Positions 294-15,233 of a stretch of 64,000 nucleotides of DNA are shown here, piece by piece. The position numbers and the translations under genes are program-made. Under the pieces are notes generated by a model. It made no database searches. It was not told the DNA's origin and was given only the letters and a program-made list of their open reading frames with translations. Within the stretch, counting starts at the first letter, position 1. Every line of letters begins with the position of its first letter. The stretch spans positions 30,147 through 94,146 of the forward strand of contig JAJFGP010000062.1 in assembly GCA_021776055.1 (NCBI GenBank), read 5' to 3'. The DNA comes from Kiloniellaceae bacterium (GTDB taxonomy: Bacteria > Pseudomonadota > Alphaproteobacteria > Kiloniellales > J153).

Positions 294-542
294 ATGGCCG
301 ATAGAGGTGCACAGAAGGCGCGTTCGGTAGGCGAAGCAGAGACCCCTGCTGATTTCCTAGCAAACTTGGGCAACGCGCTTCGCGAAAAGGAGGATGTGGA
401 CGTCGGTTTGGCAGATATCCTCGCGAAACACCTGCTTACCGCCGCGCCGGCCGTTGACGCGGTCGCGAGAGCCAAGGACGCCGTCCTGAAACTTGCAGGC
501 GACCGAGCCAATCCACCAAAGCCGGAGTTGGCCGATGGCTGA
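294..542 (+). CDS. small hypothetical protein (82 aa), first cistron of the ATPase operon
   Basis: ATG 294 lies about 5 nt after GGGGAGG (282-288). Stop TGA 540-542 overlaps the next start ATG 535 (ATGGCTGA). No family recognised. The ORF track lists it from GTG 288. Confidence 0.5.
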   Translation: MADRGAQKARSVGEAETPADFLANLGNALREKEDVDVGLADILAKHLLTAAPAVDAVARAKDAVLKLAGDRANPPKPELADG

Positions 543-3024
543 CCATTATTTTATCCAATCGTTGGGCCTCGTCGGGTTCCGCGCCTATCTGGAACCGAAG
601 ACGTTTGATTTCAGCAAGAAGCGCTGCCTGGCGATCTTCGCGCCGAACGGCAGCGGTAAGTCTAGTGTCATAGATGCGCTAGAATTCATGTTCTCCAAGG
701 ACGGAACGCTCGAACGGCTCGGGCAGCGTGCCATCAACAACCAGGCCGGTCCCGTGGCGCTGGCGCACAATCTGGCTGAGGAGGCAAAGATCGCGTCGGC
801 GGTCACGATCGGCGTCGTCTCAGGCAAGGATGCCGCCAACGGCAGCCGATCGGCGACGGGGGCGAAGCGGCCGATACCGGCGGTGGCCACGACTGTGAAC
901 GCCTGCTTTGCGGTGCCGCCGATTATCCGCGGGCACACGCTGCGCACCTTCGTCGAAATCCATACACCCGAACAGCGCTACGCGGATGTCGCCAATTGGT
1001 TGCAGCTCGGCCCGCTGGTCGAGGTCCAGAAGAATATTCGTGCGCTGCGCACGCAGGTGAAGGCTGCGGCCGAGGACGAGACGGCGCTGCAGCGTGTGAA
1101 CACCGAGCTTGCCAGGGAGACGACCCAGGTGGTGAAAACCTGGGATTCGGCGGCGGTGCTTACATACGCCACCACGTCGATCTTGGCGCCACTCGACCCA
1201 GCGCTGGTGCTGGCGGCGCTGGCGGCTGGCGATCCGGCTTTTCTCGAACTGAAAGCGCGCGCCAATGCCGAGGAAAACAAGATCGGGATCGCGGGCCTGC
1301 GCCAGATCCGCAATGCGGCCGCCGCTCTGTGGGCAGAAGAGATGGACGCGGAGAGCGGCCAGACCGTCGTCAGTGGCGCGATTCCGACCTTTGACGCGAT
1401 TGTCACGACACTGTCGGCGACGGAGAGTAAGGAAACGGAGGAGCGCGGCAAGGCGGCGAGTACCGTGTTTCAGGCTTTGTGGACAGCCGCAGAACCGCTT
1501 TTCGCCGAAGGCGTACCGGCACCTGACGTTTGCCCGGTCTGTGCAACACCTGTCGCGGACACGGCGGCGGGCAGCGCCGAGTCGATCCGGGACCATATCG
1601 CCAAGCACCTCGAAGAGCTGGCCGACTACGCCGCCGCCAAAAAGGCGCTCGACGAGGCCAAGGCCGTGGCGACCAGGGCCCACACCCAATTGGTGGCGGC
1701 GCTTCCGGGGCTGATTGGCCTGCTTGGCGACGGTGAAGCGGCGCTGAAAACCGGCCTCATCGCGTATCACGCAGGCATCGCCGGCTGGCCGCACGGCGCC
1801 GTGCCGGCCTCGGCCGATATGGGTGCGGCGATCGCCAAGCTGCTCACCACGCTCGATCAAGCCATTGCCGATATCGAGTCGAAGCAAGGCGATCACACCT
1901 ATATCAAGGCCAAGGCGAAGATCGATCGGCTGCTGGAGCTACAGACCGAACGGGACCTTGCGTTGCGGACGCGAGATGAGTTGGGGAAGCTCTCCGATGC
2001 CTTGGCGGCGCAGGCGACAATGATCTCAGCCGAAATCCGCAAGAAGCTGCAGGCCCTGCTCGACAAGCTTCAAACGCCGATGAATGACATCTACAAGTTG
2101 ATCCAGGGCGCTGGCGCCACGCCAATCCGGCTGGAGCTACCGGCAGAAGACGACACGAATCAGCAGCGGCTCAATCTCCTGATTGATTTCGCCAAAAACC
2201 GTATGGGTGTGCAGCCGGGCGGCTATTTGAGTGACTCCCAGATCCATTCAGTGGCACTGGCGCTGCGAATGGCGGCGATCAAGCAGTTTAACGTCGGCGC
2301 GCCCATCATCGCGCTGGATGACATCGTGACCTCCTACGATGCCAATCATCGGCGCACCATCGCCGGGCTCATCGCCGCCATGTTCGGCGATTGCCAGATC
2401 CTGATCACTACCCATGATGAACGGTTCTTCAATTATTTGAAGGATCAGCTCGAGACAGAGGCGTGGCACTTCACCCGCATCATCGGCCTTGACCCAGCGT
2501 ACGGCCCGCGTTTCGCGGACCACAAGGTTAGCGACGAGATGATCGAAGCACGCTGGGCGGATGGTCAGCCGGCGGCCAATGAGATGCGCCAGGCGGAGGA
2601 AGAATGGCTCTTGGGTATCTGCCGGGGATTCGGGGTCAGCGTGCGCATTCGACCGCTGGAAAAGGCGTATTCCTACGAACGTAGTGAGCTGGCCGTGGCG
2701 CTCGCCGGTTTTCTCAAGGATGCCAAGCTAAAGCCCGCGCTTGTGCCGGGCGTCAACAACCGCTTCCTCGCAAGTTTGGTGAAGGGCGAGATCGAGAATT
2801 TCGGCAGCCACTTCCAAGATGGTCCCTATGGCGACGGCTCAATCGGCGACGAGAAAGCTCGGTGGGAAGAGTTCAAAACTTTCCGCGGCCAGTTCGCTTG
2901 CAAGAAATGCAATCGGACGAAATTCCAGCGCCCCTTAACTCTGAAAAAGCCCGTCTGCGCACATGGCGGCTGCGAGGCGCAATTTGAATTCGTCGCGCCG
3001 GTTCCAAACAAGGTGATCCTGTGA
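535..3024 (+). CDS. Rad50/SbcC/RloC-like ABC (SMC-type) ATPase with coiled-coil insertion, CxxC zinc-hook-like motif and C-terminal zinc ribbon
   Basis: Walker A FAPNGSGKSS (GSGKS = nt 649-663). A ~390 aa helical insertion has CPVC near its centre (nt 1531-1542). Signature-like GGYLSDSQ, Walker B PIIALDD and H-loop ILITTHD are present. CKKC-x15-CAHGGC lies at nt 2899-2973. Start moved from TTG 493 to ATG 535 (MADHYF...). Confidence 0.85.
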   Translation: MADHYFIQSLGLVGFRAYLEPKTFDFSKKRCLAIFAPNGSGKSSVIDALEFMFSKDGTLERLGQRAINNQAGPVALAHNLAEEAKIASAVTIGVVSGKDAANGSRSATGAKRPIPAVATTVNACFAVPPIIRGHTLRTFVEIHTPEQRYADVANWLQLGPLVEVQKNIRALRTQVKAAAEDETALQRVNTELARETTQVVKTWDSAAVLTYATTSILAPLDPALVLAALAAGDPAFLELKARANAEENKIGIAGLRQIRNAAAALWAEEMDAESGQTVVSGAIPTFDAIVTTLSATESKETEERGKAASTVFQALWTAAEPLFAEGVPAPDVCPVCATPVADTAAGSAESIRDHIAKHLEELADYAAAKKALDEAKAVATRAHTQLVAALPGLIGLLGDGEAALKTGLIAYHAGIAGWPHGAVPASADMGAAIAKLLTTLDQAIADIESKQGDHTYIKAKAKIDRLLELQTERDLALRTRDELGKLSDALAAQATMISAEIRKKLQALLDKLQTPMNDIYKLIQGAGATPIRLELPAEDDTNQQRLNLLIDFAKNRMGVQPGGYLSDSQIHSVALALRMAAIKQFNVGAPIIALDDIVTSYDANHRRTIAGLIAAMFGDCQILITTHDERFFNYLKDQLETEAWHFTRIIGLDPAYGPRFADHKVSDEMIEARWADGQPAANEMRQAEEEWLLGICRGFGVSVRIRPLEKAYSYERSELAVALAGFLKDAKLKPALVPGVNNRFLASLVKGEIENFGSHFQDGPYGDGSIGDEKARWEEFKTFRGQFACKKCNRTKFQRPLTLKKPVCAHGGCEAQFEFVAPVPNKVIL

Positions 3025-3046
3025 CTCCGATTATGCGGAGAATTGT

Positions 3047-5659
3047 ATGACCGTCAGCGGGCCAGATTTTCGCCAAACGTGGCTTTGGCGGCAAGCCTTC
3101 CAAACACCGCGATCGGACAGCACTACCGAGGAGCAAGAGTTCTTCAGGACGCAGTATCTCTCAATTCGAGAGCGCACAGCGCAGCTCGTTTCCCGGATTG
3201 CGGTCGATTTGCCGGGGATGACTGTTCACGATATCAGCCATCTGGATGCGTTGTGGGACACCGCGTCCTCGGTTGCAGAGGGCGCCGTCAATGTCAATCC
3301 GGCCGAGGCGTTTGTTCTCGGCGCCAGCATACTTCTGCACGATGCGGCGATGAGTCTGGCTGCCTACCCTGGCGGCCTGGCGGAGGTGAGGACAACGGTT
3401 GCGTGGAAAGATGCTGTAGCACGGCTTGCGCTAACTTCGGAGGAAAGAGGCGGCGACAAATTTGACGTTGAGAAACTGCCGGACACCGTTGTTCAACGGG
3501 TCGTACCGGACGTCCTTCGTCGGTTGCATGCGGAGCGTGCGGAAGAACTTGCCGAACAAGCTTGGCGAATGGCAGATAAATCGCAGGTGTATCTGGTCGA
3601 GGACTCCGAGCTGCGTCGGTTCTATGGACCGACGATTGGTCAGATCGCCCACAGTCACTGGTGGTCGGTGCAAAAGTTGGAACAGGAATTCTCTGAGGAC
3701 CTGGGTGCGCTTGCAAATCGAACCCTCAATCGCGTGGATCGGGTAAAACTCGCTTGTCTGCTTCGGGTTGCTGACGCTTTGCAACTCGACAGTTGGCGAG
3801 CCCCGCGGTTTCTTCGCGCGATCACAAATCCAAGTGGTATTTCAGCGCTTCACTGGTCATTTCAAGAGCGACTGGCTAGACCGCATATCGAACTCGACGC
3901 CGTGGTCTTCACCACGGGCCAGCCCTTCGGACGCGAGGATGCGGAAGCTTGGTGGCTTGCATACGACACGTTAAACGCTGTTGACCGCGAGCTTCGAGAC
4001 GTTGATCTGCTCTTGCAGGGCCGAGGCCGTGAGGTATTGAAAGCAAGACGAGTTAAGGGTGCGTGTTCGCCAGAGATCCTTGCACGGTCGGTTCAGACTC
4101 GGGGTTGGCGCCCGGTTGATGCCCGTCTTCAAGTTTCGGATGTGCCTAGCATCGTAGAAAACCTCGGGGGATCGAAACTCTACGGCAACGATCCTACGGT
4201 GGCGTTGCGCGAGCTAATTCAAAACGCAGCCGATGCGGTACAGGCCAGACGAAAATATCAGAATCGCCCCGCTGATTGGGGGCTCATCACGGTCGGTTTG
4301 CTCTCGGAAGGGGACAGAACATGGCTTGTCGTTGAAGACAATGGCGTCGGCATGTCTGAACAGGTGCTAACCGGCCCCCTTTTGGATTTCGGGACGTCGT
4401 TTTGGCGATCACCTCTCGCGATGGAGGAGTTCCCCGGCCTCATGGCCGCGGGCATGCGTGCCATCGGCCGATTTGGTATCGGATTCTTCTCCGTGTTCAT
4501 GCTCGGCCCCGTCGTGCGGGTGTACTCTCGACGCTGCGACAAGGGTCAAGAAACGGGGCGGTTGTTGGAGTTTCGCGGTGGTACGAGCTCTAGGCCAATT
4601 CTTTCTCCTGTGTCTGGCGGTCCCGTGCCAATCGACGGCGGCACACGAGTTGAGGTCTTGCTAAAAGACCGTCCGCACGAAGCGGGTGGTCTGCTGCATG
4701 TCAATTCCTACTCCAAACGAACGATGTCGTTGGATGCGCTTGTTGGTGCGGTCGCACCGAATCTCCATGTAGCGATTGCAACGATGGTGCAGGAGGCCAC
4801 CCAACCGGTCGTTCAGCCGGGCGATTGGTTAAAGATCAGTGATTTCGATCTTGTGCGCCGTCTGAATCCGATGCTTGACCGCTCTGAATCTGATACGCCG
4901 AAGGCAGATCGGGCGCTGATGCAACCGATTGGAGATGTGAATGACCAAGTGTTTGGCCGAGCCTTTATATCGCCTTCGCGATACTTATTTTCGGCGGACG
5001 GAGGCTGGGTAACTATTTCCGGATTGCGTGCTTCCCGTCTCCACAATGTGCAAGGGGTGCTGCTTGGCGAAGCGGTTACTGCCGCTCGAGACGCTGCTCA
5101 ACCACTTGCCACAGGAGAGGCACTAGCAAAGTGGGCATCGAAGCAAGCTGAAATGATTGCCGTTGCGGTGAATGACGAGGAGCGTCAGGCACGTTCTGCC
5201 GAAGTTGTACTGGAATGCGGAGGAGAGATTGGTAATCTCAAGTTAGTGAAGTGTGGATCCGACTGGCTGACCGCAGTCGAGTTCACCGAGCGTCTTCGGT
5301 GTTCAACGGAGTTAGCGATCAGCTTCGATGGCGAGTTCGATTATGATGAGAATCAGGACGATGTTCATCCAAAGGAGTTTCGTGAGGAATTCGAGATATC
5401 GGAAAAGATTGCGTTGGTTCTGAAGCATGACGGAAGCATATTACGGAGCGGAGGCAATAGTTGGCCAAATTCTCTCACTGGACAGTCCAAGTGGAGTGAC
5501 TCGAACGTGGCTGCACATACGAGAGAGTTGATTCGCAGCGTATGGGGCGAGAACCTTGAGGAGGACGGAGAAGAGCGTGTGGTCGGCAAGGTGGGCACCT
5601 CTGAGATCATTCGTCACGTGGCAGTATTTCGCAAGGCAGATGGCGAAGGGTTTCTTTAA
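3047..5659 (+). CDS. HD phosphohydrolase domain fused to an Hsp90/sacsin-type GHKL ATPase, with ~370 aa unassigned C-terminus
   Basis: HD motifs are HDISH, ILLHDAAM (HD = nt 3338-3343) and LLRVADAL. Bergerat-fold motifs are ELIQNAADA (4211-4237), VVEDNGVGM (DNGVGM 4337-4354) and GRFGIGFFS (from 4466). A 22-nt gap separates it from the upstream gene. Confidence 0.85.
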   Translation: MTVSGPDFRQTWLWRQAFQTPRSDSTTEEQEFFRTQYLSIRERTAQLVSRIAVDLPGMTVHDISHLDALWDTASSVAEGAVNVNPAEAFVLGASILLHDAAMSLAAYPGGLAEVRTTVAWKDAVARLALTSEERGGDKFDVEKLPDTVVQRVVPDVLRRLHAERAEELAEQAWRMADKSQVYLVEDSELRRFYGPTIGQIAHSHWWSVQKLEQEFSEDLGALANRTLNRVDRVKLACLLRVADALQLDSWRAPRFLRAITNPSGISALHWSFQERLARPHIELDAVVFTTGQPFGREDAEAWWLAYDTLNAVDRELRDVDLLLQGRGREVLKARRVKGACSPEILARSVQTRGWRPVDARLQVSDVPSIVENLGGSKLYGNDPTVALRELIQNAADAVQARRKYQNRPADWGLITVGLLSEGDRTWLVVEDNGVGMSEQVLTGPLLDFGTSFWRSPLAMEEFPGLMAAGMRAIGRFGIGFFSVFMLGPVVRVYSRRCDKGQETGRLLEFRGGTSSRPILSPVSGGPVPIDGGTRVEVLLKDRPHEAGGLLHVNSYSKRTMSLDALVGAVAPNLHVAIATMVQEATQPVVQPGDWLKISDFDLVRRLNPMLDRSESDTPKADRALMQPIGDVNDQVFGRAFISPSRYLFSADGGWVTISGLRASRLHNVQGVLLGEAVTAARDAAQPLATGEALAKWASKQAEMIAVAVNDEERQARSAEVVLECGGEIGNLKLVKCGSDWLTAVEFTERLRCSTELAISFDGEFDYDENQDDVHPKEFREEFEISEKIALVLKHDGSILRSGGNSWPNSLTGQSKWSDSNVAAHTRELIRSVWGENLEEDGEERVVGKVGTSEIIRHVAVFRKADGEGFL

Positions 5660-6378
5660 TGGCGCGATCTAAGCCAATTGATCTAGCAACGCGGTCTTTC
5701 GAAACGCAAAGCGACGCCAAGACTTTTTTCAAGGCCATACTGAACCGCTACCGGCCGGGCGAGCGACTCACCGAAGAAGATGGTCTTGATCTTGTTGCAC
5801 TTCTTGAGCGCCACACAGAGTATGTCGACAAGGTGGGGTGCGGCGTCGGCCACTTTGAAGTCATGAGGACCGAGCACGGAACGCAATGTTTCCGGATTGT
5901 CCGTACTGACGGGAGCGGGACCGATTTTTCCTATATCCATTGTATTTCACAACGCGCGCCCAGTCGGAAACAGGAGGTAAGCCAAGGTTTTCGGCGAGCG
6001 GTAAAGTTAGATCTCTATAGGGCTCGCGATAGATTCTTTGCTGCTCACAAGGGCGCGGACGGCCTTGTGGCATGTGCTGTGACAAGTGAACGCATTGGGC
6101 GGGACCAAGGGCATATGGATCATTGCCCCCCGATGACATTCGAGGTCATCGTGACAACATTTCTGTGCGGGCGCGGCCTATCGCTCGACGATGTGCCGCT
6201 TACCACAGGGCGGGACGAGCAGGTCTCACCAGAAGTAACGGATGAGGCGCTGCGTGATAATTTTCGGTCCTATCATGCCAGGGTCGCGAGACTCGATTTC
6301 GTGATAAGTAGCGTTAACCTCGCACAGGCCGGCCGACACCGACTCAGACCGGGGCGCATCGATCTAGTTTCGGAATGA
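5659..6378 (+). CDS. DUF3223-like protein with a possible degenerate His-Me (HNH-like) C-terminal half
   Basis: The start overlaps the upstream stop (TAATG). The N-terminal ~100 aa (..HFEVMRTEHGTQCFRIVRTDGSGTDFSYIHCI) matches my recollection of DUF3223. The later C-x14-HMDH-CPP segment resembles the first half of an HNH finger. Confidence 0.65.
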   Translation: MARSKPIDLATRSFETQSDAKTFFKAILNRYRPGERLTEEDGLDLVALLERHTEYVDKVGCGVGHFEVMRTEHGTQCFRIVRTDGSGTDFSYIHCISQRAPSRKQEVSQGFRRAVKLDLYRARDRFFAAHKGADGLVACAVTSERIGRDQGHMDHCPPMTFEVIVTTFLCGRGLSLDDVPLTTGRDEQVSPEVTDEALRDNFRSYHARVARLDFVISSVNLAQAGRHRLRPGRIDLVSE

Positions 6379-6435
6379 ACGAAGAAGATGGCCGTGGATC
6401 ATGGCGAACTATGTCTGCGTTCCGGGACGCAGGGA

Positions 6436-6698
6436 ATGGCTGAAGGCAAATGCAAAGTTCGCGTCTTTTACTCTTGGCAAAGCGTTTCTCCAAAAAAGGC
6501 GAATTTGTATGCGATCCGGGAGGAGCTTGGGGAGACAGCCAAGCGCGTCGAAGCGGCGACAACCGAGATAAAAATATACTTGATGAAGCAACTCTGGACA
6601 CATGGAGAAGCCCGAATGCCGTGCCAAAAACTTCAGAAGAAATCGAGATGGCGCGCTTGAGATATGTGTCCGGGATCAACGCTTATGGAACAAGCTAG
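6436..6698 (+). pseudogene. frameshifted, truncated remnant of a TIR-like (YSWQSD-type N-terminus) defence-associated gene
   Basis: Frame of ORF 6388-6660 reads KVRVFYSWQSVSPKKANLYAIREELGETAKR. Frame of ORF 6450-6698 continues ILDEATLDTWRSPNAVPKTSEEIEMA. Together they mimic the N-terminal ~70 aa of TIR-like proteins (..FYSWQSDLP..NR.FI....RDT.GSP.I...I..KI). The rest of the gene is missing. Confidence 0.45.
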
Positions 6699-6926
6699 CC
6701 TGATTGTGTGACGAAAGATATCGGCCTCATCGTAACCACCAAGGAGTGGAGATGAGAATGAAATCCGGGACAGCTAACCCATCGGCCGAGAGGGTCATGA
6801 AAGATCCCCGCATGAATATAAGAGTGGCTATCCTTGCTATAGGCACTTTGGGATGCTCGTTGATACGCAGTACTTGTCAACGATGCTTGACCATGTAGAG
6901 ATGCTAGCTGCCATATGAGTAAGAAG

Positions 6927-7598
6927 TTATCCACGTCTCGTGCACCGCAAGTTGAAGCTCTCAATCCAACTTTCATGAAATTTCGGTAAAAGATTTACCG
7001 TGGCCTCTACAAGTTCGTCACCTACAGCTTCGGGCATACCGTGCACAAACGCATTTCGCTGTTGTTGAACATTTTCTAAATGTGTACGAACCGAACTGTA
7101 ACCGAGATCATCTAAGTCGTCGCCGTAGCGATTGCCAAAAAGAATTCGATGTAGTCGATCAAGGCGCGCACCAATTGAGGCATAACGGCTCAGAAGATCT
7201 GACGCGACCGGCCTCGGAAGCTCACTTGTTGCTGTTTCATAAAACCAACCCATGAGCGTTTCGAAATACGTCCAAAATAACAGAATAACTAATACGCGTT
7301 CTGAAGGACGATTTTCTTTGGGAAGAGACAGACCGTTATCTCTACCCAAAGGTCGAACCCAATCTCGATGCATAAGCTGAAGCATTGCATATGGAGACCA
7401 GTCGAGCGCTCCTGCAAATGCTTGCGGCACTAAAACAGTCTTACCTTCGGTAACAATTTCAGTCGGAGAGATATTGCGGTAGTTCGTTGCACAAACTGGA
7501 CAATCATCATTGAGGTCCATCAGTGCTCGGCATGAACCGCATCTTATTCGGTCTTTCCACGCGCCCCACCACCACTCCCAATTATTTGATTCCATCAA
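6927..7598 (-). CDS. zinc-ribbon + HEPN-like protein (putative RNase effector)
   Basis: N-terminal CGSC-x9-CPVC. An Rx4H motif, QQQRNAFVHG, lies at nt 7041-7058 near the C-terminus of a helical region. It is on the same strand as, and 39 nt downstream of, the DUF6527 gene. It is visibly more AT-rich than its neighbours. Confidence 0.6.
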   Translation of the reverse strand: MMESNNWEWWWGAWKDRIRCGSCRALMDLNDDCPVCATNYRNISPTEIVTEGKTVLVPQAFAGALDWSPYAMLQLMHRDWVRPLGRDNGLSLPKENRPSERVLVILLFWTYFETLMGWFYETATSELPRPVASDLLSRYASIGARLDRLHRILFGNRYGDDLDDLGYSSVRTHLENVQQQRNAFVHGMPEAVGDELVEATVNLLPKFHESWIESFNLRCTRRG

Positions 7599-7637
7599 TA
7601 TTCTTTCCCGACTATGTATTATGCTAAACGCTGATAT

Positions 7638-7994
7638 CTATTCCTGAATAAATTTACACCATGAAATACGCCCCATGCGGAACCAAAAATGGGAGCCGCA
7701 GTCCTTCTTGCGCCATATGGACGGATAGAGCGTAGCCGTACCATCTTCATGCCGGGTCAATTGCCAACACGGTCGCTCGTCAGGCAATAGGTTCATGTAA
7801 AGTACTCTGCCGCAGCCACATGGGCAGATCATGGCAACGTGTTCGTTAAACCCATCTTCCTGAACGACATAGAGGATGCGGCGCTTTGGGCGGCTCGGCA
7901 GCGACTCTTCAACAACAATTGTGCGATACGGCGGAGCAAACCAGTCGCGAAGTTTGCGGAGGGCGCAGGATAGTAGCTTCCGAAACCAGTTCAA
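7638..7994 (-). CDS. DUF6527-family small Cys-rich protein
   Basis: CPCGCG ... PCW ... DCGSHFWF motifs. Overlaps the E1 gene stop by 4 nt. This family usually accompanies the multiubiquitin/E2/E1-JAB gene set. Confidence 0.7.
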   Translation of the reverse strand: MNWFRKLLSCALRKLRDWFAPPYRTIVVEESLPSRPKRRILYVVQEDGFNEHVAMICPCGCGRVLYMNLLPDERPCWQLTRHEDGTATLYPSIWRKKDCGSHFWFRMGRISWCKFIQE

Positions 7995-9406
7995 GCGGCC
8001 CGCCTTTCAGAAAGCTCCATGATTCCGAGAAGCGGCGTGACATCTCCCAGGCCGACGCTGCCCCCTAGAATTTCGCAGATACCTTCTTCGGGATCGTAAA
8101 TAATCTCCATGCTGGCGAGGCTGAATGTGACAGCGGCGTAGTTGTTGTTCGGCTCTTCACGGAAGGGGTGAAGGCGCGCGAGGAACTCATTGACCGCCAG
8201 CCCGGCCGCGAACATGTTGACGCTGATGACCGCCGGGCGGTGCGCTTGCACACCGGCGATATATCCGTCCTCGACTTGCTGGTCATGGGCGGCAGGGTCA
8301 TTGCGCCGCAAACCGGCGGCGGCAACCTGGTTCATTGTAAATAGGCCCCGGCTCATCAAGCTTGATCGGCCTGGGCGGATGTAATGGACGGTACCGCATA
8401 TCTCACGAATGTTTCCCTTGGCCGCGCCTTGCCGTATGGCTTCAAGCCGCACACCGATGTCAAAATATGGCAGGGTATAATAGGCCGCGAGCGCATTTAG
8501 CAGATACCGGCCATCGATGGTATCCATACACCCAAAAACCACATCGCATTGCGCGACTTTCCGCACAACCTCCTGGTCCCAAAGATTCCTGCCCAGCGGA
8601 ATAACCCGCGTACCAAGACCGGCCCGATCGATCGCCTCGGCTTGCACATCGACCTTGGGGCGGCCCAATGCGGCGTCACGCATGGTCGAGTTCAGGATGC
8701 GGTTTACGTTACGATCCTCCATGGAATCGTCATCCACGATGACCAGCTCGCCGACACCCAGTCGCATGAGCTGTTCGATCACGGGGCTACCCGTGCCCGA
8801 GGCGCCGATGACAGCGATAGACAGGCGCCGCAGCCGCTCGATTGTCCCCTCATCGAATATCTGCGCATGGGACGCCGCAAAGCTGGGTACGTCCTTGTTA
8901 CCCGCGTCCGCATACCAAAAATGCAAGTCGTCGTCGGCGACGCTGATACATTCGATTGGTTCCATTTTTTGTCCGGACCTAAGAACGCGCCCGAACATTT
9001 GTCCATCGGGCAACATAACAGCGCTTCCGTGTGCAATATCGGCCTCGACCCACCCCCGGATCATGGGCAGCAAGCGGGCATCCCCTTCATCATCCGTTCC
9101 TGAAAAGGCCGGATAGCCGTTCGGGTGACTATGCACCTTAATCACGGAAAGTCGCTTGTCGGCGGCCCGTTCAAGAATGGGAGCAACATAATCCGGGTGC
9201 CAGGTCACGCGTACTGGCGTTCGCTCCGAGCACTGGTCATAGGGCACATCGTGGATTTCGCGCACGACCAGCCGGTGGCGTCGATCACCTTCGCGTCTAT
9301 TGCAAAGAAGAAGGGCGACAGCCTCCTTGCCATCCCCCGGAAAAAGAAAACTCTTGAGGTGCTCGTGCTGGTCGCCCGAAAGCGCGAGGGTTACTGGGAC
9401 GGGCAT
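7991..9406 (-). CDS. JAB/JAMM deubiquitinase-like domain fused to a ThiF/E1-like adenylyltransferase
   Basis: JAMM motif HSHPNGYPAFSGTD (nt 9092-9133) with an upstream Glu (GKEAVALLL). Rossmann IAVIGASGTGSPVIEQLMRLGVGELVIVDDD (GASGTG = nt 8789-8806). Confidence 0.9.
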   Translation of the reverse strand: MPVPVTLALSGDQHEHLKSFLFPGDGKEAVALLLCNRREGDRRHRLVVREIHDVPYDQCSERTPVRVTWHPDYVAPILERAADKRLSVIKVHSHPNGYPAFSGTDDEGDARLLPMIRGWVEADIAHGSAVMLPDGQMFGRVLRSGQKMEPIECISVADDDLHFWYADAGNKDVPSFAASHAQIFDEGTIERLRRLSIAVIGASGTGSPVIEQLMRLGVGELVIVDDDSMEDRNVNRILNSTMRDAALGRPKVDVQAEAIDRAGLGTRVIPLGRNLWDQEVVRKVAQCDVVFGCMDTIDGRYLLNALAAYYTLPYFDIGVRLEAIRQGAAKGNIREICGTVHYIRPGRSSLMSRGLFTMNQVAAAGLRRNDPAAHDQQVEDGYIAGVQAHRPAVISVNMFAAGLAVNEFLARLHPFREEPNNNYAAVTFSLASMEIIYDPEEGICEILGGSVGLGDVTPLLGIMELSERRAA

Positions 9407-9804
9407 TTTTCGAACTCCCTAGCAAGCCAGTCCTCGACGAGGATTACATGAGTGCCCAGAGAGTCGCGGCCAATCTTCCACGGATTCTGCCCGGAGCGAT
9501 GGCGTGACCACCGTTGGTACGACTTGCCATCGATCACCTGCTTGGCGTCCGTCGCACCAATTTGCCTTCCGTCCGTTCTCGCAAGCGCGGGGAAGAAATA
9601 TACCATGTTCAATTCAGTGTTGGGGTAGCCGGTTTCCATGCGGATTGCCGCCGTCACGCGAGGATGATTGTAACCCTCATGTGTCGGAAAGTCGTGGATC
9701 AGAACCCACTGTGAACCATCCACAATGGTTTCCCATGGCAGACCATATTCGTTGAGAAAAACCTGGTCCTGCTCCGGCAGGTCAAACTGGCGACGAAGGC
9801 TCAT
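9391..9804 (-). CDS. prokaryotic E2/UBC-like protein (Prok-E2 family)
   Basis: 137 aa with a YNHPRV (HPN-like) motif and flanking aromatic-rich strands. It sits between the Ubl and E1 genes and overlaps E1 by 16 nt. Family call is from memory of the Prok-E2_E neighbourhood. Confidence 0.65.
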   Translation of the reverse strand: MSLRRQFDLPEQDQVFLNEYGLPWETIVDGSQWVLIHDFPTHEGYNHPRVTAAIRMETGYPNTELNMVYFFPALARTDGRQIGATDAKQVIDGKSYQRWSRHRSGQNPWKIGRDSLGTHVILVEDWLAREFEKCPSQ

Positions 9805-9807
9805 CTA

Positions 9808-10149
9808 TTAGCCCTCCGTCTGATCGCGCGGCAGCGCCTTGAACTTCTCGACGCCGGGACGGCGCAGGTCAACTTTTTCGTCGAGCCCGACCTTTTGGGG
9901 TTTTTCGCCAGCCAATTTGACTCGCAGTGTATAGTTTTCCACCGGGATCAGACCGCCAAGGGTCAGTATCTCGCGCCCGGTGGGCAGCGGATCGTGGACC
10001 ACATAGGGGTCGCCGTTGATCTTGAGGCGGTAACCCCTGGCGAGCGGGGGCCGCTTGCCGAGCTTGGCGTACTCCTCAAGGTCGATTATGTCGTCGAGCA
10101 CCGCTTCGACACCGGAGGAGTCCTCCTTGGATTTAGATTGAGTAGTCAT
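9808..10149 (-). CDS. ubiquitin-like beta-grasp protein (multiubiquitin-family), C-terminal Gly
   Basis: 113 aa with an acidic N-terminus followed by GYRLKINGDPYVVHDPLPTGREILTLGGL...YTLRVKL. It ends ..RDQTEG-stop (GGC 9811-9813, TAA 9808-9810). First gene of the minus-strand operon. Confidence 0.7.
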   Translation of the reverse strand: MTTQSKSKEDSSGVEAVLDDIIDLEEYAKLGKRPPLARGYRLKINGDPYVVHDPLPTGREILTLGGLIPVENYTLRVKLAGEKPQKVGLDEKVDLRRPGVEKFKALPRDQTEG

Positions 10150-10227
10150 TCATAGGTTCCTTTTTGCTAGTTAAGCTCCGGGCCACCTTGGCCAGGCATG
10201 ACCAAGTATGCCAAAGCATGCTAAGTT

Positions 10228-10279
10228 TGTCAAGCATCTAATTAGCACGCTTGACATAGCTAGCGACAATGGCTAGAAT
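10228..10279. promoter_or_regulatory. divergent promoter/operator region between the Ubl operon and the XRE gene
   Basis: Inverted repeat TGTCAAGC (10228-10235) / GCTTGACA (10249-10256). Plus strand: TTGACA (10251-10256), 17-nt spacer, TAGAAT (10274-10279), then AAGGAG and ATG 10315. Minus strand: the mirrored TTGACA is followed 17 nt later by CATACT. Confidence 0.55.
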
Positions 10280-10314
10280 CGTAAGGAAAACAACGCATCA
10301 AGGAGCCTGCCTAT

Positions 10315-10710
10315 ATGTCCACAGCCACCAGAGACAGGACCACCGTGAAACCGACCCTGGGGCAATACCTCGCTTCGATTCGCACCGACCGGAAGTTGAC
10401 TCTGCGCCAGGTCGAGGAGGCCACGAACAAGGAAGTTTCGAACGCCTATCTCAGCCAAATAGAAAACGACAAGATAAAAAAGCCCTCGCCCAACATTCTT
10501 CACACACTCGCGGAACTCTACGGCATCAGTTTTGAGAAACTGATGGATATGGCCGGATACCTGATGTCATCGACGAAACGCGCCGACGATGACAGGCACG
10601 GCCGCGTGGCAACCTTCGCTGAGCATAACCTTACGTCCGACGAGGAAACGGAGTTAATCCAGTATCTCCAATTCATTCGGGGCAGGAATCGGAAACGTGA
10701 CAAAGCCTGA
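10315..10710 (+). CDS. XRE-family helix-turn-helix transcriptional regulator
   Basis: LRQVEEATNKEVSNAYLSQIENDKIKKPSPNILHTLAELYGISFEKL is a typical HTH_3 sequence. AAGGAG RBS. Overlaps the next gene by 14 nt. Confidence 0.9.
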   Translation: MSTATRDRTTVKPTLGQYLASIRTDRKLTLRQVEEATNKEVSNAYLSQIENDKIKKPSPNILHTLAELYGISFEKLMDMAGYLMSSTKRADDDRHGRVATFAEHNLTSDEETELIQYLQFIRGRNRKRDKA

Positions 10711-11641
10711 TGATAGTAGCCTCGACCCCGAGGATCTTCGCGCGGTCGAGGCGCGTGCAAGGCGTCTCCTAGACCGCGCGGACGCATGGAACCGATTTCC
10801 CGTACCAATTGAGGATATTCTTTCCGCCGCCAAGGTTCAGGTCGCGCCAACCAGCGCATTCGACGCGGATTCTATTCTTGCGTATCTAAAGGGTAGGGCC
10901 GCGGACACTGGGGTGCGTATCAAATCGGCGATCACAAAGGTGTTTGGGCTTTATGATGCTGGAGAAAGCCTGATCCACGTTGATGACACCGTGGTCGAAT
11001 CAAAGCGAACGTTTCTAAAACTACATGAAACGGCGCATCACGATATGCCGACACACCGGAAGACGTTTCGATTCTTTCAGGACTGCGAAAAGACACTCGC
11101 GCCTGAGATCGCGGATCAGTTTGAGCGAGAGGCGAACAATTTCGCCCGCTTCGCACTTTTCAAGGGTGATACTTACGCGGAGTACGCATCAGACTGTGCG
11201 TTCGAAATCAAAACGCCAATGAAGCTCGCAAAAAAGTTTGGCGCATCAATTTACGCATCCGCCCGCGAGTTCGCGCGGACGAACGACAGGGCGTGCGTTG
11301 TTTACATCTTGGAACCGCCAGAGTTTTGCCAAGCGAATGGTGCGAAGGCTATCGTTCGGCGCATCGAGCCCTCCAATGACTATGTCGCGCGATTTGGGCA
11401 TCCGGCCGACAAGGTTATCACGTCCGATCACTTCCTTTGGTCGGTACTGCCCTGTGGTCGCAGAATGACGCGGCCCACTGCAGTTTCGGTCATCGACAAA
11501 AATGGAACGTGCCACGACTGTGTGGCAGAGGCGTTCGATACCACTTACAATGTGTTGATCCTGCTCTATCCCGTGCGAGCCCTAAGCGCTAGGACGATCA
11601 TCCTGCCTCGGGGCTTCAAGAAAAAGGTCGCCGATAAGTAA
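10697..11641 (+). CDS. ImmA/IrrE-family zinc metallopeptidase (DUF955-like) with a long C-terminal extension
   Basis: HExxH motif HETAHH at nt 11024-11041. GTG start overlaps the XRE stop. This is the classic XRE-ImmA pairing. Confidence 0.85.
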   Translation: MTKPDDSSLDPEDLRAVEARARRLLDRADAWNRFPVPIEDILSAAKVQVAPTSAFDADSILAYLKGRAADTGVRIKSAITKVFGLYDAGESLIHVDDTVVESKRTFLKLHETAHHDMPTHRKTFRFFQDCEKTLAPEIADQFEREANNFARFALFKGDTYAEYASDCAFEIKTPMKLAKKFGASIYASAREFARTNDRACVVYILEPPEFCQANGAKAIVRRIEPSNDYVARFGHPADKVITSDHFLWSVLPCGRRMTRPTAVSVIDKNGTCHDCVAEAFDTTYNVLILLYPVRALSARTIILPRGFKKKVADK

Positions 11642-11693
11642 GAAGCGTAATGAGACCACCCTATCACACTAACTTAGAAGAAATTAGACGAAC

Positions 11694-12572
11694 ATGGTCA
11701 GACGCATAACGGCATCGCAGTGGAACAGTAAAGTGCGTCAGGCGCAGCAGAAGCATCGCCAGGCCATCGGAAAATATAATTCCGAGGTCAGAGCTTATAA
11801 TCAGAAAGTCAATCAGGCGGTCAACAAATACAACAGTGAAGTGAGCGCCCACAATGCGCGGGTTCGGGCGAACCGACAGCGACTGAAAAACGAAATAGCG
11901 CGCCTAAGCCGCCAGACAGTAACGACGCGCTACGTTACATTCCGGCCATCGGTCAACGAAGTCCAAAGCGCGTACGAGCGATTGGAACATGCGGCGGACT
12001 CGAGCGGTTATGACGATCGGTACAACGAAATTCTCGATCTGTCGGAACGTGAGGCCGCCAACAATGCTGGTCTGATGAACGCATTGCTGGGTGATGCGCA
12101 GTCGTCCAATGAACAGCCGCCGAACGCGCCCGAGAGCCCGCTGTCGCCCATTCTTCAGGCGATATCAGGCGAACTTGCCGACCGTTGGCGGGGCGCGCTG
12201 TACTCTTTGAGCCCGCAGAACCCCGATGCCGCGCGACATTTTTGTACGAGTGCGCGTGAAATCATCGCACGAATCCTGGATACGAAGGCGCCTGATAGTT
12301 CCGTTGCCGCCGCGATGCCGGATTGCGACCGCACGCAGCAGGGAACGCCGACGCGACGCGCTAAGATACGCTATTTCCTGCACTTGCAAGGAATAAATAA
12401 GGATGAACTTGTGGCGTTCATCGAAAGCGACATGGATAACGTGGTTGATTTGTTTGATGTCTTTAATATGGGCACCCATGGTTCCGCCGGAACGTTCGAC
12501 TTTGCGCAGCTTCAGGCGATCCGCAAGCGGGTTGAGGATGGGATCATGTTTCTCTCCCGGCTGATGCGCTAA
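11694..12572 (+). CDS. hypothetical protein with an N-terminal tandem 18-aa repeat and a helical C-terminal domain
   Basis: AIGKYNSEVRAYNQKVNQ / AVNKYNSEVSAHNARVRA (nt 11763-11870). The C-terminus (NPDAARHFCTSAREIIARIL...PTRRAKIRYFL...FNMGTHGSAG) resembles, from memory, domains annotated as pPIWI-associating nuclease. That call is uncertain. Confidence 0.55.
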   Translation: MVRRITASQWNSKVRQAQQKHRQAIGKYNSEVRAYNQKVNQAVNKYNSEVSAHNARVRANRQRLKNEIARLSRQTVTTRYVTFRPSVNEVQSAYERLEHAADSSGYDDRYNEILDLSEREAANNAGLMNALLGDAQSSNEQPPNAPESPLSPILQAISGELADRWRGALYSLSPQNPDAARHFCTSAREIIARILDTKAPDSSVAAAMPDCDRTQQGTPTRRAKIRYFLHLQGINKDELVAFIESDMDNVVDLFDVFNMGTHGSAGTFDFAQLQAIRKRVEDGIMFLSRLMR

Positions 12573-12701
12573 TGGAAAATGGGTGCGTTCAGCTAGTGCC
12601 GGGTCGGGCTCTAAGCGTGAACTTTCAGAAGGTTTCCCCCGGTCCTGACCGAGGAAGCTGGGGTTGTCGAAGCCTCAGAGTTAAAGGAAGACCGAAAGGA
12701 T

Positions 12702-12821
12702 ATCCATAAGAATGCCCGACTGACACCGATGGATTGAGAGCAGCTAGTGCGCTTGATCTAAGCGGGTACAAGGCCGAAGGCCGTCACCGAAGCCGTGTGT
12801 CCGCGCACGATGCGTAAATAG
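12702..12821 (+). pseudogene. fragment of an IS481-family transposase N-terminus (HTH region) with in-frame stops
   Basis: Translation is IHKNARLTPMD*EQLVRLI*AGTRPKAVTEAVCPRTMRK*. HKNARLTP is the characteristic start of IS481-type transposases. No catalytic domain follows. Confidence 0.5.
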
Positions 12822-12911
12822 TTGACGCACTAGCGTGCCGAGGGTGTGGCTTAATTCAAACCCTCTGGAACTGAGCAATTAGTTTTCTGATGGCTCCTAT
12901 TTAGCTCACAG

Positions 12912-12998
12912 TGGGGGCGGACGGCGGGATTCGAACCCGCACGACTGTTAGTCATTGGATTATAGGTCCAATGTGTCTACCAATTTCGCTACGTCCGT
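12912..12998 (-). tRNA. type II (long variable arm) tRNA-Leu-like gene, probably degenerate
   Basis: Reverse complement is ACGGACGTAGCGAAATTGGTAGACACATTGGACCTATAATCCAATGACTAACAGTCGTGCGGGTTCGAATCCCGCCGTCCGCCCCCA. The T-arm (GCGGG/TTCGAAT/CCCGC) and D-loop are good. Position 1 is mismatched, the D-stem is weakened, the anticodon loop is CCTATAA (C at position 33) and the tail is CCCCA. Confidence 0.45.
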
Positions 12999-13032
12999 AG
13001 TGTTTACATGTGATTTTAAGCCTGCGGTTCTC

Positions 13033-14211
13033 CTAGGCGGCTTCACTACCTTTCATCGTCGATTCTATTTGGGTCGCAATTCGCTCGGCGGCATCCTTGA
13101 CTGGATCGGCCGCTAGGTGTGCATATCGCGCCGTGGTCTGAGCTTGGGTGTGGCCGAGGAGCTTGCCGATCATGGGCAGGCTTTCGCCGAGATTGGCCGC
13201 GACGCTGGCATAAGAGTGTCGGAGGTCGTGCATCCGGACGTCATGAAGATCAGCCCGCTTTCTGATCGCTTCCCACTGATGGCCCATCCTTGTCATATGA
13301 CCCCGGTGGAAACGGCCGACGAGCACGTGGGGATTGTCCTGCACCCGTGGGATCGCTTTCAGGACGTCAATCGCCGGGCCGGATAGATAGACCGTCTTCC
13401 GGCCGGTCTTGCTGTCCGCGAGATTGATCCGCTTGTTCTCGAAATCGATGTAGTCCCACTTGAGGGTCAGGATTTCGCCGAGACGGCAACCGGTGAAGAT
13501 CAACAAGCGGATCGCCTGGATGGCTCCGATGAAGATAGACCCATCCTTTTCGGCCTCGTTGAGGATCTTGGCGAGCCGTCCGAACTCCACTGGCGAAAGA
13601 TAGCGCTCCATCTTCCGGCTTGGGTACTTGTCGATGTGCCGGCAGGGGTTGGTGCCGTCGGACCGCAGGCCCCACTTCTCAGCCAGATTGAACATCTTGC
13701 CGAGCAGCCCCATGACGTGGTTGGCGGCACCCGGCCGGTCGACCATCTTCGCGTGCAGGCGCTGGATATCGGCGCGGGTCACGAGGTCGAGGCGTTTCTT
13801 TCCCAGGGCAGGGAGGACATGGTTGTTCAGGTTGGATATGTCGGACTTTACGCTGCTTGGCTTCTTCTTGGGACGGGCGTGTTCATCGAGATAGCGCTCG
13901 GAGAACTCCCGCACGGTCGGCTTTGTCCGCGCCTCGCGCAGGTCCTCGCTCGGGTCTTGACCCATCGCCACGCGGGCCAGCCATTGCTGCGCCTTGGTCC
14001 GGGCCTGATCGCAGGTGATTTTGCCATGAACGCCGAGGGCAGGGCGCCTCTGCCGACCGTCGAGTGTTCGGTAGTAAAGCAGGTAGGCGCGCTTGCCCTT
14101 GGGCGTGATCTTACAGCCGAAGCCACTTAGCTGCCGATCCCAGAACACAGAATCGGTCTTGCCAGGTTTGGCGGACTCAACCACTCTCTTGGTCAATTTG
14201 ACGCGATTCAT
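13033..14211 (-). CDS. int: tyrosine site-specific integrase (P4-type, DUF4102 N-terminus)
   Basis: N-terminus KLTKRVVESAKPGKTDSVFWDRQLSGFGCKITPKGKRAYLLYYR. Catalytic HDLRHSYAS and LLGHTQAQTTARYAH. Start moved to ATG 14211 (MNRVKL). Confidence 0.9.
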   Translation of the reverse strand: MNRVKLTKRVVESAKPGKTDSVFWDRQLSGFGCKITPKGKRAYLLYYRTLDGRQRRPALGVHGKITCDQARTKAQQWLARVAMGQDPSEDLREARTKPTVREFSERYLDEHARPKKKPSSVKSDISNLNNHVLPALGKKRLDLVTRADIQRLHAKMVDRPGAANHVMGLLGKMFNLAEKWGLRSDGTNPCRHIDKYPSRKMERYLSPVEFGRLAKILNEAEKDGSIFIGAIQAIRLLIFTGCRLGEILTLKWDYIDFENKRINLADSKTGRKTVYLSGPAIDVLKAIPRVQDNPHVLVGRFHRGHMTRMGHQWEAIRKRADLHDVRMHDLRHSYASVAANLGESLPMIGKLLGHTQAQTTARYAHLAADPVKDAAERIATQIESTMKGSEAA

Positions 14212-14384
14212 GAGTCGATATCGCCCGATTTCTAGGTAGCACATAGGTAGCAGAAGAACGGGAAACGCCGTGCACTCCACCGAATGCTACCGTGAGTCTA
14301 GTCGTGCGCAGCTCTCTGATATAGAAGGAAATAGTGCGTTTCCGTGAAGGTCAGTGAGCTACACCGATAGGGCGATAGTACGAG

Positions 14385-14429
14385 ATCATAATCCGCGTGT
14401 CGGGGGTTCGAGTCCCTCTCCCGCTACCA
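14385..14429 (+). repeat. direct repeat copy 1: tRNA 3'-half-like att sequence
   Basis: ATCATAATCCGCGTGTCGGGGGTTCGAGTCCCTCTCCCGCTACCA. It reads as anticodon-loop side, variable loop, T-arm, acceptor 3' strand and CCA. No complementary AGCGGGA 5' strand was found upstream. Confidence 0.8.
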
Positions 14430-14477
14430 CTATCTATCTGAATTAAAAGAGAAACTTTACTCGTCTCTCAGGACCTT

Positions 14478-14504
14478 GAGCTGAGGAACTTTGTTTCCTC
14501 AGCT
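14478..14504. repeat. perfect 11-bp inverted repeat (hairpin) just right of repeat copy 1
   Basis: GAGCTGAGGAA-CTTTG-TTCCTCAGCTC. There is no flanking T-run on either strand, so it is not a canonical terminator. Confidence 0.6.
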
Positions 14505-15233
14505 CGGCCGGAACGCGCTGGAATCGGTGTAAATCTGCGGGCAAATGTTGTTGCCGCTGGTAAATAGGAAGGCTGCCTCCAGGCTGGGTTTGACATGCAC
14601 TTGACATGCGTCTCATGCGTCGCTTGTTCCAGGGCGCATTTAGGCTGTGCCGGGCGACTCAATAATTGAGCCTATCGGCAGGCGAAGAAGCTTTTCATGC
14701 AGAATGGGAGAACCGGGCGTCCGTCGCTGTCATGCCGATTCCGGGATGAAAACGCGACACAATTAGCGAGACTTGCAGTCTTTAGCGGGGACTGCGGCGT
14801 TCCGTGCCACTTCAAGAACTACTACTCCGTGAGCATGGGCACAACGATGCTACCGTCACAACCTGATCCCAGTTTAAAATCCTGCCCTCGCAACCAAAAA
14901 TATCCCGCTTTCTCAATAAGATAGATGGCTTTTTGATTCTTGGCTGAGATCTGCTTGATGTTCCCGGGTGCCATATGGGTACCTGTCTAGATCAAGAATA
15001 GTCCAAGACGGCGCGAGTGGTCTGGTGTTGTAGACGGCCCCGCATCTGGCACCCTCGGATGCTCGAGACGCCCCAGATGCTGCGATGCGGTTGTCGAGTT
15101 GGACCCAAACCAGGGTGACAGCCCACCCATTTGGGCTGCTGCCCCGAAGTTTGATGTCAGAAAGCCTTGCGCATCCGAGCGAAGCTGTCTAAGTGCGGAG
15201 AAGCAAGAAACTTCTTACTGTGGGTAAACAATC

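Follow-up and report, generated by a model that had tools for sequence, protein, structure and literature searches.

A probable Type I-like Bub conjugation operon with separate ubiquitin-like and E2 genes in a Kiloniellaceae bacterium

Identity of the operon

Our analysis showed that a set of four minus-strand genes in the window (the whole 64,000-nucleotide stretch of Kiloniellaceae DNA analyzed here) corresponds to the genes of a Bub ("6e"/DUF6527) operon, namely bubA, bubB, bubCD and bubE, each with its own Pfam family assignment (Table 1). The locus is very probably a Type I-like operon for Bub (bacterial ubiquitination-like) conjugation, albeit one in which bubA and bubB are unfused. Our data show the homology, the fold and the gene order, and that all catalytic residues are present and conserved, while the oxyester chemistry that we infer for the locus is drawn from structural and mutant work on the Citrobacter and E. 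coli systems. The initial annotation had read the E2-like protein as Cys-free in its interior and pointed to a recently reported bacterial pathway with oxyester intermediates. The reading is correct, and the pathway in question is the Bub pathway of Ye, Gong, Chambers & Corbett (bioRxiv 2024, PMC11601596), which appears as NSMB 2026 in the reference list of PMC13373217. The locus is a further member of a known system: the operon family has been on record since 2006, its oxyester mechanism was reported in 2024–2026, and with this chemistry already published the locus contributes small details only.

The comparison sets comprised 150 diverse cluster representatives, 121 close homologues and 52 related genome loci; the PADLOC and NCBIfam collections are without Bub-specific models. 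The closest relatives come from Hyphomicrobiales, e.g., Mesorhizobium (81%), and a complete plasmid of Methylocystis rosea displays an identical gene order amid Abi and methyltransferase genes. BubB homologues were found in no phage genome.

Table 1. Features of the Bub locus and its flanks, in window coordinates.
Feature	Position	Strand	Basis or detail
223-aa ORF directly 3' of bubE, N-terminal CxxC...CxxC	6927..7598	-	no family match
bubE, 118-aa DUF6527 protein	7638..7994	-	Pfam PF20137 E=5.4e-23
bubCD, 471-aa JAB/JAMM peptidase-E1 adenylation fusion	7991..9406	-	Pfam Prok-JAB + ThiF
bubB, 137-aa E2, predicted diverged UBC fold, no catalytic Cys	9391..9804	-	Pfam PF14462 (Prok-E2_E) E=1e-42
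TAA-TAG double stop, bubA/bubB junction	9805..9810	-	TAA 9808-9810, TAG 9805-9807
bubA, 113-aa ubiquitin-like protein	9808..10149	-	Pfam PF14452 (Multi_ubiq) E=4.3e-16
Divergent sigma-70-like candidate promoters	10205..10279	.	consensus matches only
capH-like XRE helix-turn-helix repressor, divergent from bubA	10315..10710	+	Pfam HTH_3; PADLOC capH E=9.6e-6
capP-like metallopeptidase, HETAH = HExxH	10697..11641	+	PADLOC capP E=1.1e-11

The Cys-less E2, BubB

As first annotated, the 137-residue BubB has a sole cysteine, residue 134 (codon 9403-9405), in the tail EFEKCPSQ and none internally; the YQRWSRHRSGQ stretch singled out there occupies residues 96–106. A single cysteine in 137 residues is unremarkable by itself, and the signal comes instead from conservation across the family. 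BubB matches the Citrobacter BubB (PDB 9EAE_C) with E=3.8e-27, and its AF2 model (pLDDT 93.1) superposes on the same chain in Foldseek with TM scores of 0.88/0.94 and an rmsd of 1.1 Å; its matches to UBE2N, Cap2, Atg10 and UEV are weak (TM 0.38–0.51).

The predicted catalytic residues, Ser100 (9505-9507) and His102 (9499-9501), lie inside a Q97-x-W99-S100-R101-H102 motif; in a gapless alignment they pair with Ser333 and His335 of Citrobacter BubB. All five named columns are invariant or near-invariant in the alignment of diverse homologues. His102 is retained in 138 of 142 diverse representatives, 120 of 121 close homologues and 50/50 genome loci. The alignment proposed in the initial annotation as a way of locating an invariant residue pointed to Ser100 (142/143 diverse representatives, 121/121 close homologues and 50/50 genome loci) rather than to the terminal Cys, which is present in just 5 of the 150 diverse representatives. 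Nor is there any column in which Cys occurs in more than 18 of the 150 diverse homologues. Thus, BubB displays the Cys-less Prok-E2_E domain with invariant Ser and His of the broad Bub/'6e' family.

In canonical E2s, the HPN motif comes after strand 4 of the UBC fold. The segment YNHPRV, earlier taken for an HPN-like motif, was rejected as such both by its position in the model, before strand 3 (E49-56), and by column conservation: H47 and P48 are not conserved, the commonest residues in the diverse homologues being V37/H24/Q20 and S22/E21/P19, respectively. With no internal Cys and this segment unconserved, BubB lacks the arrangement of a catalytic Cys downstream of HPN that marks a canonical UBC E2.

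Homology supports the serine chemistry that had been offered as one option for this E2. In Citrobacter, oxyesters at E1 Tyr370 and E2 Ser333/His335 were deduced from structural and mutant data rather than by direct trapping, and BubA is no longer conjugated, either in vitro or in cells, with Y370F or the S333A/H335A double mutant (PMC11601596). Together with the match to Citrobacter BubB and the gapless alignment of Ser100/His102, this suggests that BubB may likewise act through its serine. The principal alternative is an adaptor role, in which BubB would have an E2 fold of the RWD/UEV-like sort but no catalytic activity and would do no more than bind the Ubl, with transfer either proceeding directly from the E1 or not occurring. 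This was the original view of Iyer, Burroughs & Aravind in 2006, who deemed the '6e' E2-like domain, devoid of a conserved Cys, inactive and RWD-like (Genome Biol 7:R60, PMC1779556), and a UEV domain does figure among the weak E2-fold matches of BubB. However, an adaptor would have no need for the invariant Q-x-W-S-R-H motif, and the Citrobacter Ser, whose mutation with His335 abolishes conjugation, sits at the E2 Cys position facing E1 Y370 (PMC11601596). Given this misfit with both the motif and the experiments on homologues, we consider the adaptor option, which had also been raised in the initial annotation, unlikely.

BubA and the bubA/bubB junction

BubA has a single β-grasp (Multi_ubiq) domain (residues 40–106) preceded by an acidic N-terminal tail, and has no cysteines. 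Its PDB matches include residues 155–229 of Citrobacter BubA (E=1e-6) and other multi-ubiquitin Ubls. The RDQTEG-stop terminus reported earlier was recovered, with the Gly113 codon GGC at 9811-9813, and so was its corollary: the glycine is ready-made ahead of the TAA and processing is unneeded to expose it. The Multi_ubiq Ubl with a conserved terminal Gly typical of the broad Bub/'6e' family is thus present.

The Type I operons of Ye et al. encode one BubAB fusion cleaved after this Gly; here a TAA-TAG double stop separates the two genes, at the exact site of the JAB cut in fused BubAB proteins. The bubA gene, both stops and the bubB ATG (9802-9804) all share one frame, and the Thr-Glu-Gly codons of bubA (ACGGAGGGC) provide bubB with a Shine-Dalgarno sequence, GGAGG, 8–12 nt before its ATG. 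One could read this arrangement as a broken fusion—a disabling mutation or assembly error that leaves the E2 unmade or dependent on read-through—and both the shared frame and the statement that every Type I operon encodes the fusion (PMC11601596) are in keeping with it. Yet about 38 of the 52 related loci have DQTEG-stop immediately 5' of the E2 start (gap 0–8 nt), each of the three possible frames of the E2 start relative to the bubA stop being represented, and bubB here has its own Shine-Dalgarno sequence. Further, among the 150 cluster representatives, 44 can be classed with confidence as standalone E2s, full-length and with an initial Met, the two genes are annotated separately by RefSeq on the complete Methylocystis rosea plasmid, and the standalone form was already described by Iyer et al. 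in 2006 (PMC1779556). Because relatives use all three relative frames, the split is real and not a fusion restored by read-through; a broken fusion was rejected from the junctions of the 52 loci and is very improbable. Since the two genes are separated by the TAA-TAG, and most of the alphaproteobacterial related loci are likewise split, we file the locus as an unfused variant and not as a literal member of Type I.

BubCD, the active-site Asp position of BubB, and BubE

The start ATG of bubCD falls inside the Lys133–Cys134 codons of bubB, giving a 16-nt overlap, and it is because this start codon overlaps the bubB 3' end (AAA-TGC) that Cys134 exists. That Cys134 is the true catalytic residue of a conventional thioester has a vanishingly small probability: it is the only Cys in BubB and recurs in 66 of the 121 close homologues, but it lies in a tail of 3–4 residues beyond the last helix (pLDDT down to 66) that many close relatives lack, 21 related loci ending in ...EFEK-stop with an ATGA start/stop overlap with bubCD and Cys appearing only where that TGA reads TGC; its column, in which Cys is so rare among the diverse representatives, has Trp in six close homologues, and Citrobacter BubB functions without an equivalent. 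Mapping of the overlap thus eliminated the C-terminal Cys as the nucleophile, the remaining option of the initial annotation.

BubCD aligns with Citrobacter BubCD (PDB 9EA4) over residues 7–467 (E=3.9e-102), the alignment including GYI(A/T)GV. As in Type I (Ye et al.), the JAB/JAMM domain is N-terminal to the E1 and has an intact site: E28, H92, H94, S102 and D105 (9092-9325). The adenylation Arg is Arg236 (8699-8701), and the crossover-loop Tyr382 (8261-8263) aligns with Citrobacter Y370. The loop is free of Cys, all seven cysteines of BubCD (35, 59, 153, 287, 293, 337 and 444) being located outside it, which is the Tyr-positive, Cys-free condition of the broad Bub/'6e' family. Each of the 46 related loci with full coverage has the complete E-H-H-S-D-R-Y catalytic set, and the crossover Tyr is present in 47 loci. 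The JAB active site is kept in every examined unfused locus, although BubA needs no processing in them.

The published "invariant" Asp beside the Ser-His pair of Type I E2s (Ye et al.), Citrobacter Asp299, is replaced in BubB by Asn66 (9607-9609). This position is Asp in all 73 fused representatives, more mixed in standalone E2s (D59, N8, H2 and others) and variable within the close clade (N92, D13, H7, S4, Q4); the BubB active site is accordingly not identical to that of Citrobacter. If the intact JAB and the tolerated Asn, His, Gln and Ser reflect function, then in unfused Bub operons the JAB might do more than cleave a pre-protein, serving in editing or deconjugation, and the E2 might rely on a dyad of Ser and His instead of a triad, a proposal that we hold tentatively and place a little short of an even balance. 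On the same premise, the Asp would be dispensable in the unfused close clade. Such a JAB role, if true, would contradict the published suggestion that the BubCD JAB acts mainly or solely on BubAB.

BubE contains four cysteines (C57, C59, C61, C99) and a Ser92-His102 pair, with numbering equal to that of the zinc site and protease dyad of Citrobacter BubE, in which S92A or H102A abolishes cleavage (PMC11601596). It thus carries the DUF6527 domain with C4 zinc site and Ser-His dyad of the broad Bub/'6e' family, and these residues are retained in 44 of 44 related loci. The 223-aa ORF that follows bubE returned no matches in Pfam, PADLOC or NCBIfam, and its membership in the operon is uncertain. 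Homologues of its product (35–37% identity) were observed in 5 of the 52 related loci, where they lie upstream of the E2 gene, not after bubE.

Regulatory genes and genomic surroundings

A divergent XRE-HTH gene followed by a HExxH metallopeptidase gene adjoins the operon promoter region, and CapH and CapP are reported next to 31% of Bub operons (PMC11601596). The capH-like product is a weak match to the HTH protein of PDB 7T5U, and capP overlaps capH by 14 nt. Between the divergent genes, candidate promoters were recognized toward bubA (minus strand, TTGACA-17-CATACT) and toward capH (plus strand, TTGACA-17-TAGAAT), with both -35 boxes within an inverted repeat (10220-10235 / 10249-10264) that is a candidate operator for CapH.

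The neighbors of the Bub operon include candidate defense-type genes (HamC-like and nuclease-like), and an integrase is nearby. An att-like direct repeat of a tRNA end was not found within positions 1–16000 of the window. No Bub operon is so far known to protect against phage.

Proposed mechanism and its significance

Based on the Citrobacter homologues, BubA would be translated with its C-terminal Gly113 already free and adenylated there with ATP by the E1 domain of BubCD (Arg236). It would then pass onto the crossover-loop Tyr382 as a tyrosyl oxyester and on to BubB Ser100 as a seryl oxyester, with His102 assisting, before BubB hands it to target lysines. BubE, as a putative zinc-binding Ser92-His102 protease, would strip BubA from targets, and the intact JAB of BubCD, unneeded for Gly exposure, would probably trim or deconjugate. 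The neighboring CapH/CapP pair probably turns the operon on when DNA is damaged or phage infects. As with the chemistry, we infer what the JAB does, how CapH/CapP regulate the locus and what its biological function is.

A ubiquitin-like cascade without a catalytic Cys is striking biology, though already on record. What the locus and its relatives add are modest refinements: unfused bubA and bubB genes are common, the Asp position is variable and the JAB site is retained. These are useful for the choice of mutants and model operons in Bub biochemistry, and open no new question.

Comparison with known systems

The closest comparison is with the Type I operon of Citrobacter sp. RHBSTW-00271 (PDB 9EA4, 9EA8, 9EAE, 9EAV), which has the same order of activities: Ubl, Cys-less E2, JAB-E1 and DUF6527 protease. 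The two share the E2 Ser/His, the E1 Arg/Tyr, the JAB E/H/H/D, the BubE C4 and Ser-His residues, the DQTEG C-terminus of the Ubl, the adjacent CapH and CapP, and a setting among candidate defense-type genes near an integrase. They differ in that bubA and bubB are separate here, with the BubA Gly free without JAB cleavage; in that BubA has one β-grasp domain (113 aa) as against three in Citrobacter; and in that BubB has Asn66 for D299 and an additional 4-residue CPSQ tail.

The '6e' operons (Pfam Prok-E2_E/Multi_ubiq/DUF6527) are the same family, and their Cys-less E2 was already recorded in 2006; later biochemistry indicates an active serine-based E2 rather than the inactive domain of that reading. 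Type II Bub systems (BubA, a BubBD E2-E1 fusion and BubE) share the Cys-free cascade, the E2 Ser, the E1 crossover-loop Tyr and BubE. However, they fuse E2 to E1 and usually lack a JAB, whereas at this locus it is the JAB that is joined to the E1 and the E2 stands free, and their Ser is accompanied by Lys and His, not by His and Asp. With canonical E2s and the E2s of Bil and CBASS (Cap2), BubB may share a diverged UBC fold and, by analogy, a role as carrier from E1 to target, but it has neither the catalytic Cys nor the HPN motif nor the C-terminal helix pair, and its ester with BubA would be an oxyester rather than a thioester.

Operon layout and gene identities

Four closely packed ORFs occupy 7638-10149 on the minus strand of the window and correspond to bubA (encoding the ubiquitin-like protein), bubB (the E2), bubCD (the JAB–E1 protein) and bubE (the DUF6527 protein) of a Bub operon. 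The statements that the initial annotation drew from the sequence were all correct: BubB is 137 aa long, has residue 134 as its sole Cys (tail EFEKCPSQ) and contains the stretch YQRWSRHRSGQ, while the 113-aa BubA terminates in RDQTEG, with the Gly113 codon GGC at 9811-9813. Next come two stop codons, TAA (9808-9810) and TAG (9805-9807), and the bubB ATG, all in a single shared frame; the C-terminal Gly is indeed ready-made and needs no cleavage.

Features of the Bub locus and its surroundings (window coordinates)
Feature	Coordinates	Strand	Matches and remarks
SMC/RecF-like ATPase, 843 aa	493-3024	+	
HD-CE + GHKL ATPase protein, 870 aa	3047-5659	+	
DUF3223/HamC-like protein	5659-6378	+	PADLOC HamC E=1e-50
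223-aa ORF	6927-7598	-	40 nt downstream of bubE; N-terminal CxxC...CxxC
bubE	7994..7638	-	DUF6527 Pfam E=5e-23; Citrobacter counterpart without solved structure
bubCD	9406..7991	-	Pfam Prok-JAB + ThiF in a single 471-aa protein; BubCD 9EA4 E=4e-102, residues 7-467
bubB	9804..9391	-	Prok-E2_E Pfam E=1e-42; Citrobacter BubB PDB 9EAE/9EAV E=4e-27
bubA	10149..9808	-	Multi_ubiq Pfam E=4e-16; Citrobacter BubA 155-229 E=1e-6
capH-like HTH gene	10315-10710		Divergent from bubA; PADLOC E=9.6e-6
capP-like HExxH peptidase gene	10697-11641		Divergent from bubA; PADLOC E=1.1e-11
292-aa protein	11694-12572	+	Directly after capP; C-terminal pP_pnuc_1 (predicted pPIWI-associated nuclease), E=7e-45
Atypical tRNA, 85 nt	12914-12998	-	Rfam only 46 bits; sole tRNA of the window
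Tyrosine integrase	13033-14280	-	tRNA 35 nt downstream

Predicted serine chemistry at the E2 active site

An AlphaFold2 model of the window BubB, computed from 77 homologues (mean pLDDT 93.1), matches the crystal chain of BubB from Citrobacter sp. RHBSTW-00271 with TM scores of 0.88/0.94 and an rmsd of 1.1 Å, and matches UBE2N, the Cap2 E2 domain, Atg10 and a UEV domain weakly (TM 0.38-0.51). As far as a model can tell, these matches are what the published account of BubB would lead one to expect, namely a UBC fold that has diverged and is missing the C-terminal helix pair (PMC11601596).

Catalytic residues were mapped with HMMER alignments that were gapless around the sites, and their codons were verified in the window; the 133-residue BubB PDB chain represents BubAB residues 230-362, and the BubCD chain has two additional N-terminal residues. 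BubB Ser100, His102 and Asn66 correspond to Citrobacter S333, H335 and D299; BubCD Tyr382 and Arg236 to Y370 and R227; the JAB residues E28, H92, H94 and D105 to E28, H91, H93 and D104; and BubE C57, C59, C61, C99, S92 and H102 to residues of identical numbering. In Citrobacter, the E1 crossover loop lacks a Cys and has an invariant Tyr370, and BubB places an invariant Ser333 at the E2 Cys position, together with His335 and Asp299; conjugation was lost in Y370F and in S333A/H335A, both in vitro and in cells, and the cascade was concluded to proceed via oxyester intermediates (PMC11601596). The initial annotation was thus accurate in pointing to a reported bacterial oxyester (Ser) pathway, which is Bub.

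Across the best 150 representatives of 50%-identity clusters, the Ser100 column is Ser in 142 of 143, with W99 (142/143), R101 (140/142), H102 (138/142) and Q97 (140/144) similarly kept. In the alignment with 120 close homologues (≥73% identity), every one of the 121 rows has Ser100 and 120 of them have His102, and all 50 of the 52 compared genome loci that are covered at these BubB positions have both. A search of the E2 alignments for a Cys-rich column found none. The JAB and E1 residues (E-H-H-S-D-R-Y) and the BubE residues (C-C-C-S-C-H) are kept in every covered locus (46 and 44, respectively). Serine chemistry, the leading interpretation in the initial annotation, is supported as the predicted mechanism at this locus by the close homology to the experimentally studied Citrobacter BubB; a non-catalytic adaptor role is disfavored.

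In two related loci (L011 and L012, from Variibacter and Pseudorhodoplanes MAGs; local positions ~6001-6300), the E2 ORF stops after ...DGKTYQR, at 99 aa; the stop falls at the Trp99 codon, immediately ahead of the catalytic Ser-Arg-His. These bubB copies are apparently inactivated, with the rest of the operon intact.

The lone cysteine and the YNHPRV motif

The C-terminal Cys had been offered as another catalytic candidate. The bubCD ATG lies within the bubB Lys133-Cys134 codons (AAA-TGC), so that the two genes share 16 nt. The E2 of 21 related loci terminates in ...EFEK and a TGA, a classic ATGA start/stop overlap, whereas 11 loci resemble the window in having TGC in place of TGA and an E2 longer by 3-4 residues (CPxx). 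Since, in addition, six close homologues have Trp at this position and the tail is modeled with low confidence, we reject Cys134 as a catalytic residue and regard it as a by-product of gene overlap.

Canonical UBC E2s have their HPN motif after strand 4. The YNHPRV segment, previously likened to it, precedes strand 3 in the model, and conservation of its H47 and P48 is confined to the close clade and does not extend family-wide; the likeness is therefore coincidental.

Putative regulators and genomic neighborhood

A capH + capP pair adjoins 31% of Bub operons (PMC11601596). Here, the 165-bp intergenic region contains two divergent sigma-70-like promoters with their -35 boxes within an inverted repeat, a plausible candidate operator.

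To the left of the operon are three co-oriented genes (493-6378), the third starting within the stop of the second, which may constitute another defense module. The 223-aa ORF had no match in Pfam, PADLOC or NCBIfam; its homologues (35-37% identity) lie upstream of the E2 gene in five related loci (L003, L005, L008, L011 and L012), making it a recurrent, movable Bub neighbor. No Argonaute gene is adjacent to the pP_pnuc_1 gene. The tRNA has a long variable arm, an anticodon read as TAT (Ile) and an apparent A1:C72 mismatch, and may be degenerate or element-borne; a search of window 1-16000 for an att-like repeat of its end was negative. The Methylocystis plasmid copy of Bub is surrounded by AbiE, AbiJ, AbiV and methyltransferase genes. 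These surroundings fit a defense-island setting, although phage protection is still a putative function of Bub operons.

Comparison with known Bub systems

The '6e' operons were defined by Iyer, Burroughs and Aravind in 2006, who judged the E2-like domain, without a conserved Cys, to be probably inactive and RWD-like, and already recorded an unfused Ubl/E2 arrangement (PMC1779556). Their newer name, Bub, comes from Ye, Gong, Chambers and Corbett (bioRxiv 2024; PMC11601596), whose preprint the reference list of PMC13373217 gives as Nat Struct Mol Biol 2026;33:71-83. In their Citrobacter Type I system, the JAB domain cleaves the BubAB fusion after Gly229, and BubE, a weak Ser92-His102 protease, strips conjugates (PMC11601596).

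Whereas Ye et al. described all Type I operons, from 107 BubAB proteins, as fusions, the window has separate bubA and bubB genes. About 38 of the 52 related loci show DQTEG-stop with the E2 start within 0-8 nt, in all three relative frames, and seven more distant ones (e.g., Flavobacterium, Opitutaceae and Erythrobacter) have an in-frame fusion. In L016, L021 and L049 (~position 6000), BubA extends one residue past the Gly (DQTEGA-stop or DQTEGT-stop) and its stop is overlapped by the E2 start codon; such a BubA would be intermediate between a ready-made Gly and full fusion, still requiring C-terminal trimming. The best 150 cluster representatives comprise 73 fused, 44 confidently standalone and 33 fragmentary or unclear versions. 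A GGAGG supplied by the bubA Thr-Glu-Gly codons lies 8-12 nt ahead of the bubB ATG. RefSeq likewise annotates separate genes on the Methylocystis rosea plasmid (NZ_CP044329.1); there, bubE (local positions 3976-4155 of locus L053) is annotated at 180 nt only, with a gap of ~190 nt to bubCD, which suggests truncation or mis-annotation.

All split loci keep an intact JAB site even though BubA requires no cleavage there. This is hard to square with the suggestion that the JAB domain acts 'primarily or solely' on unprocessed BubAB (PMC11601596); its putative role in split operons would be trimming or deconjugating.

The second departure is Asn66, against the 'invariant' Asp299 of Citrobacter. Fused representatives have Asp here without exception (73/73), while the column varies in standalone ones (D59, N8, H2, A/E/T) and in the close clade (N92, D13, H7, S4, Q4); we infer that the residue positions His102 and is not an essential charge relay. 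The system itself is already known, and this locus is an added Bub member, unfused and with an active-site Asp-to-Asn change.
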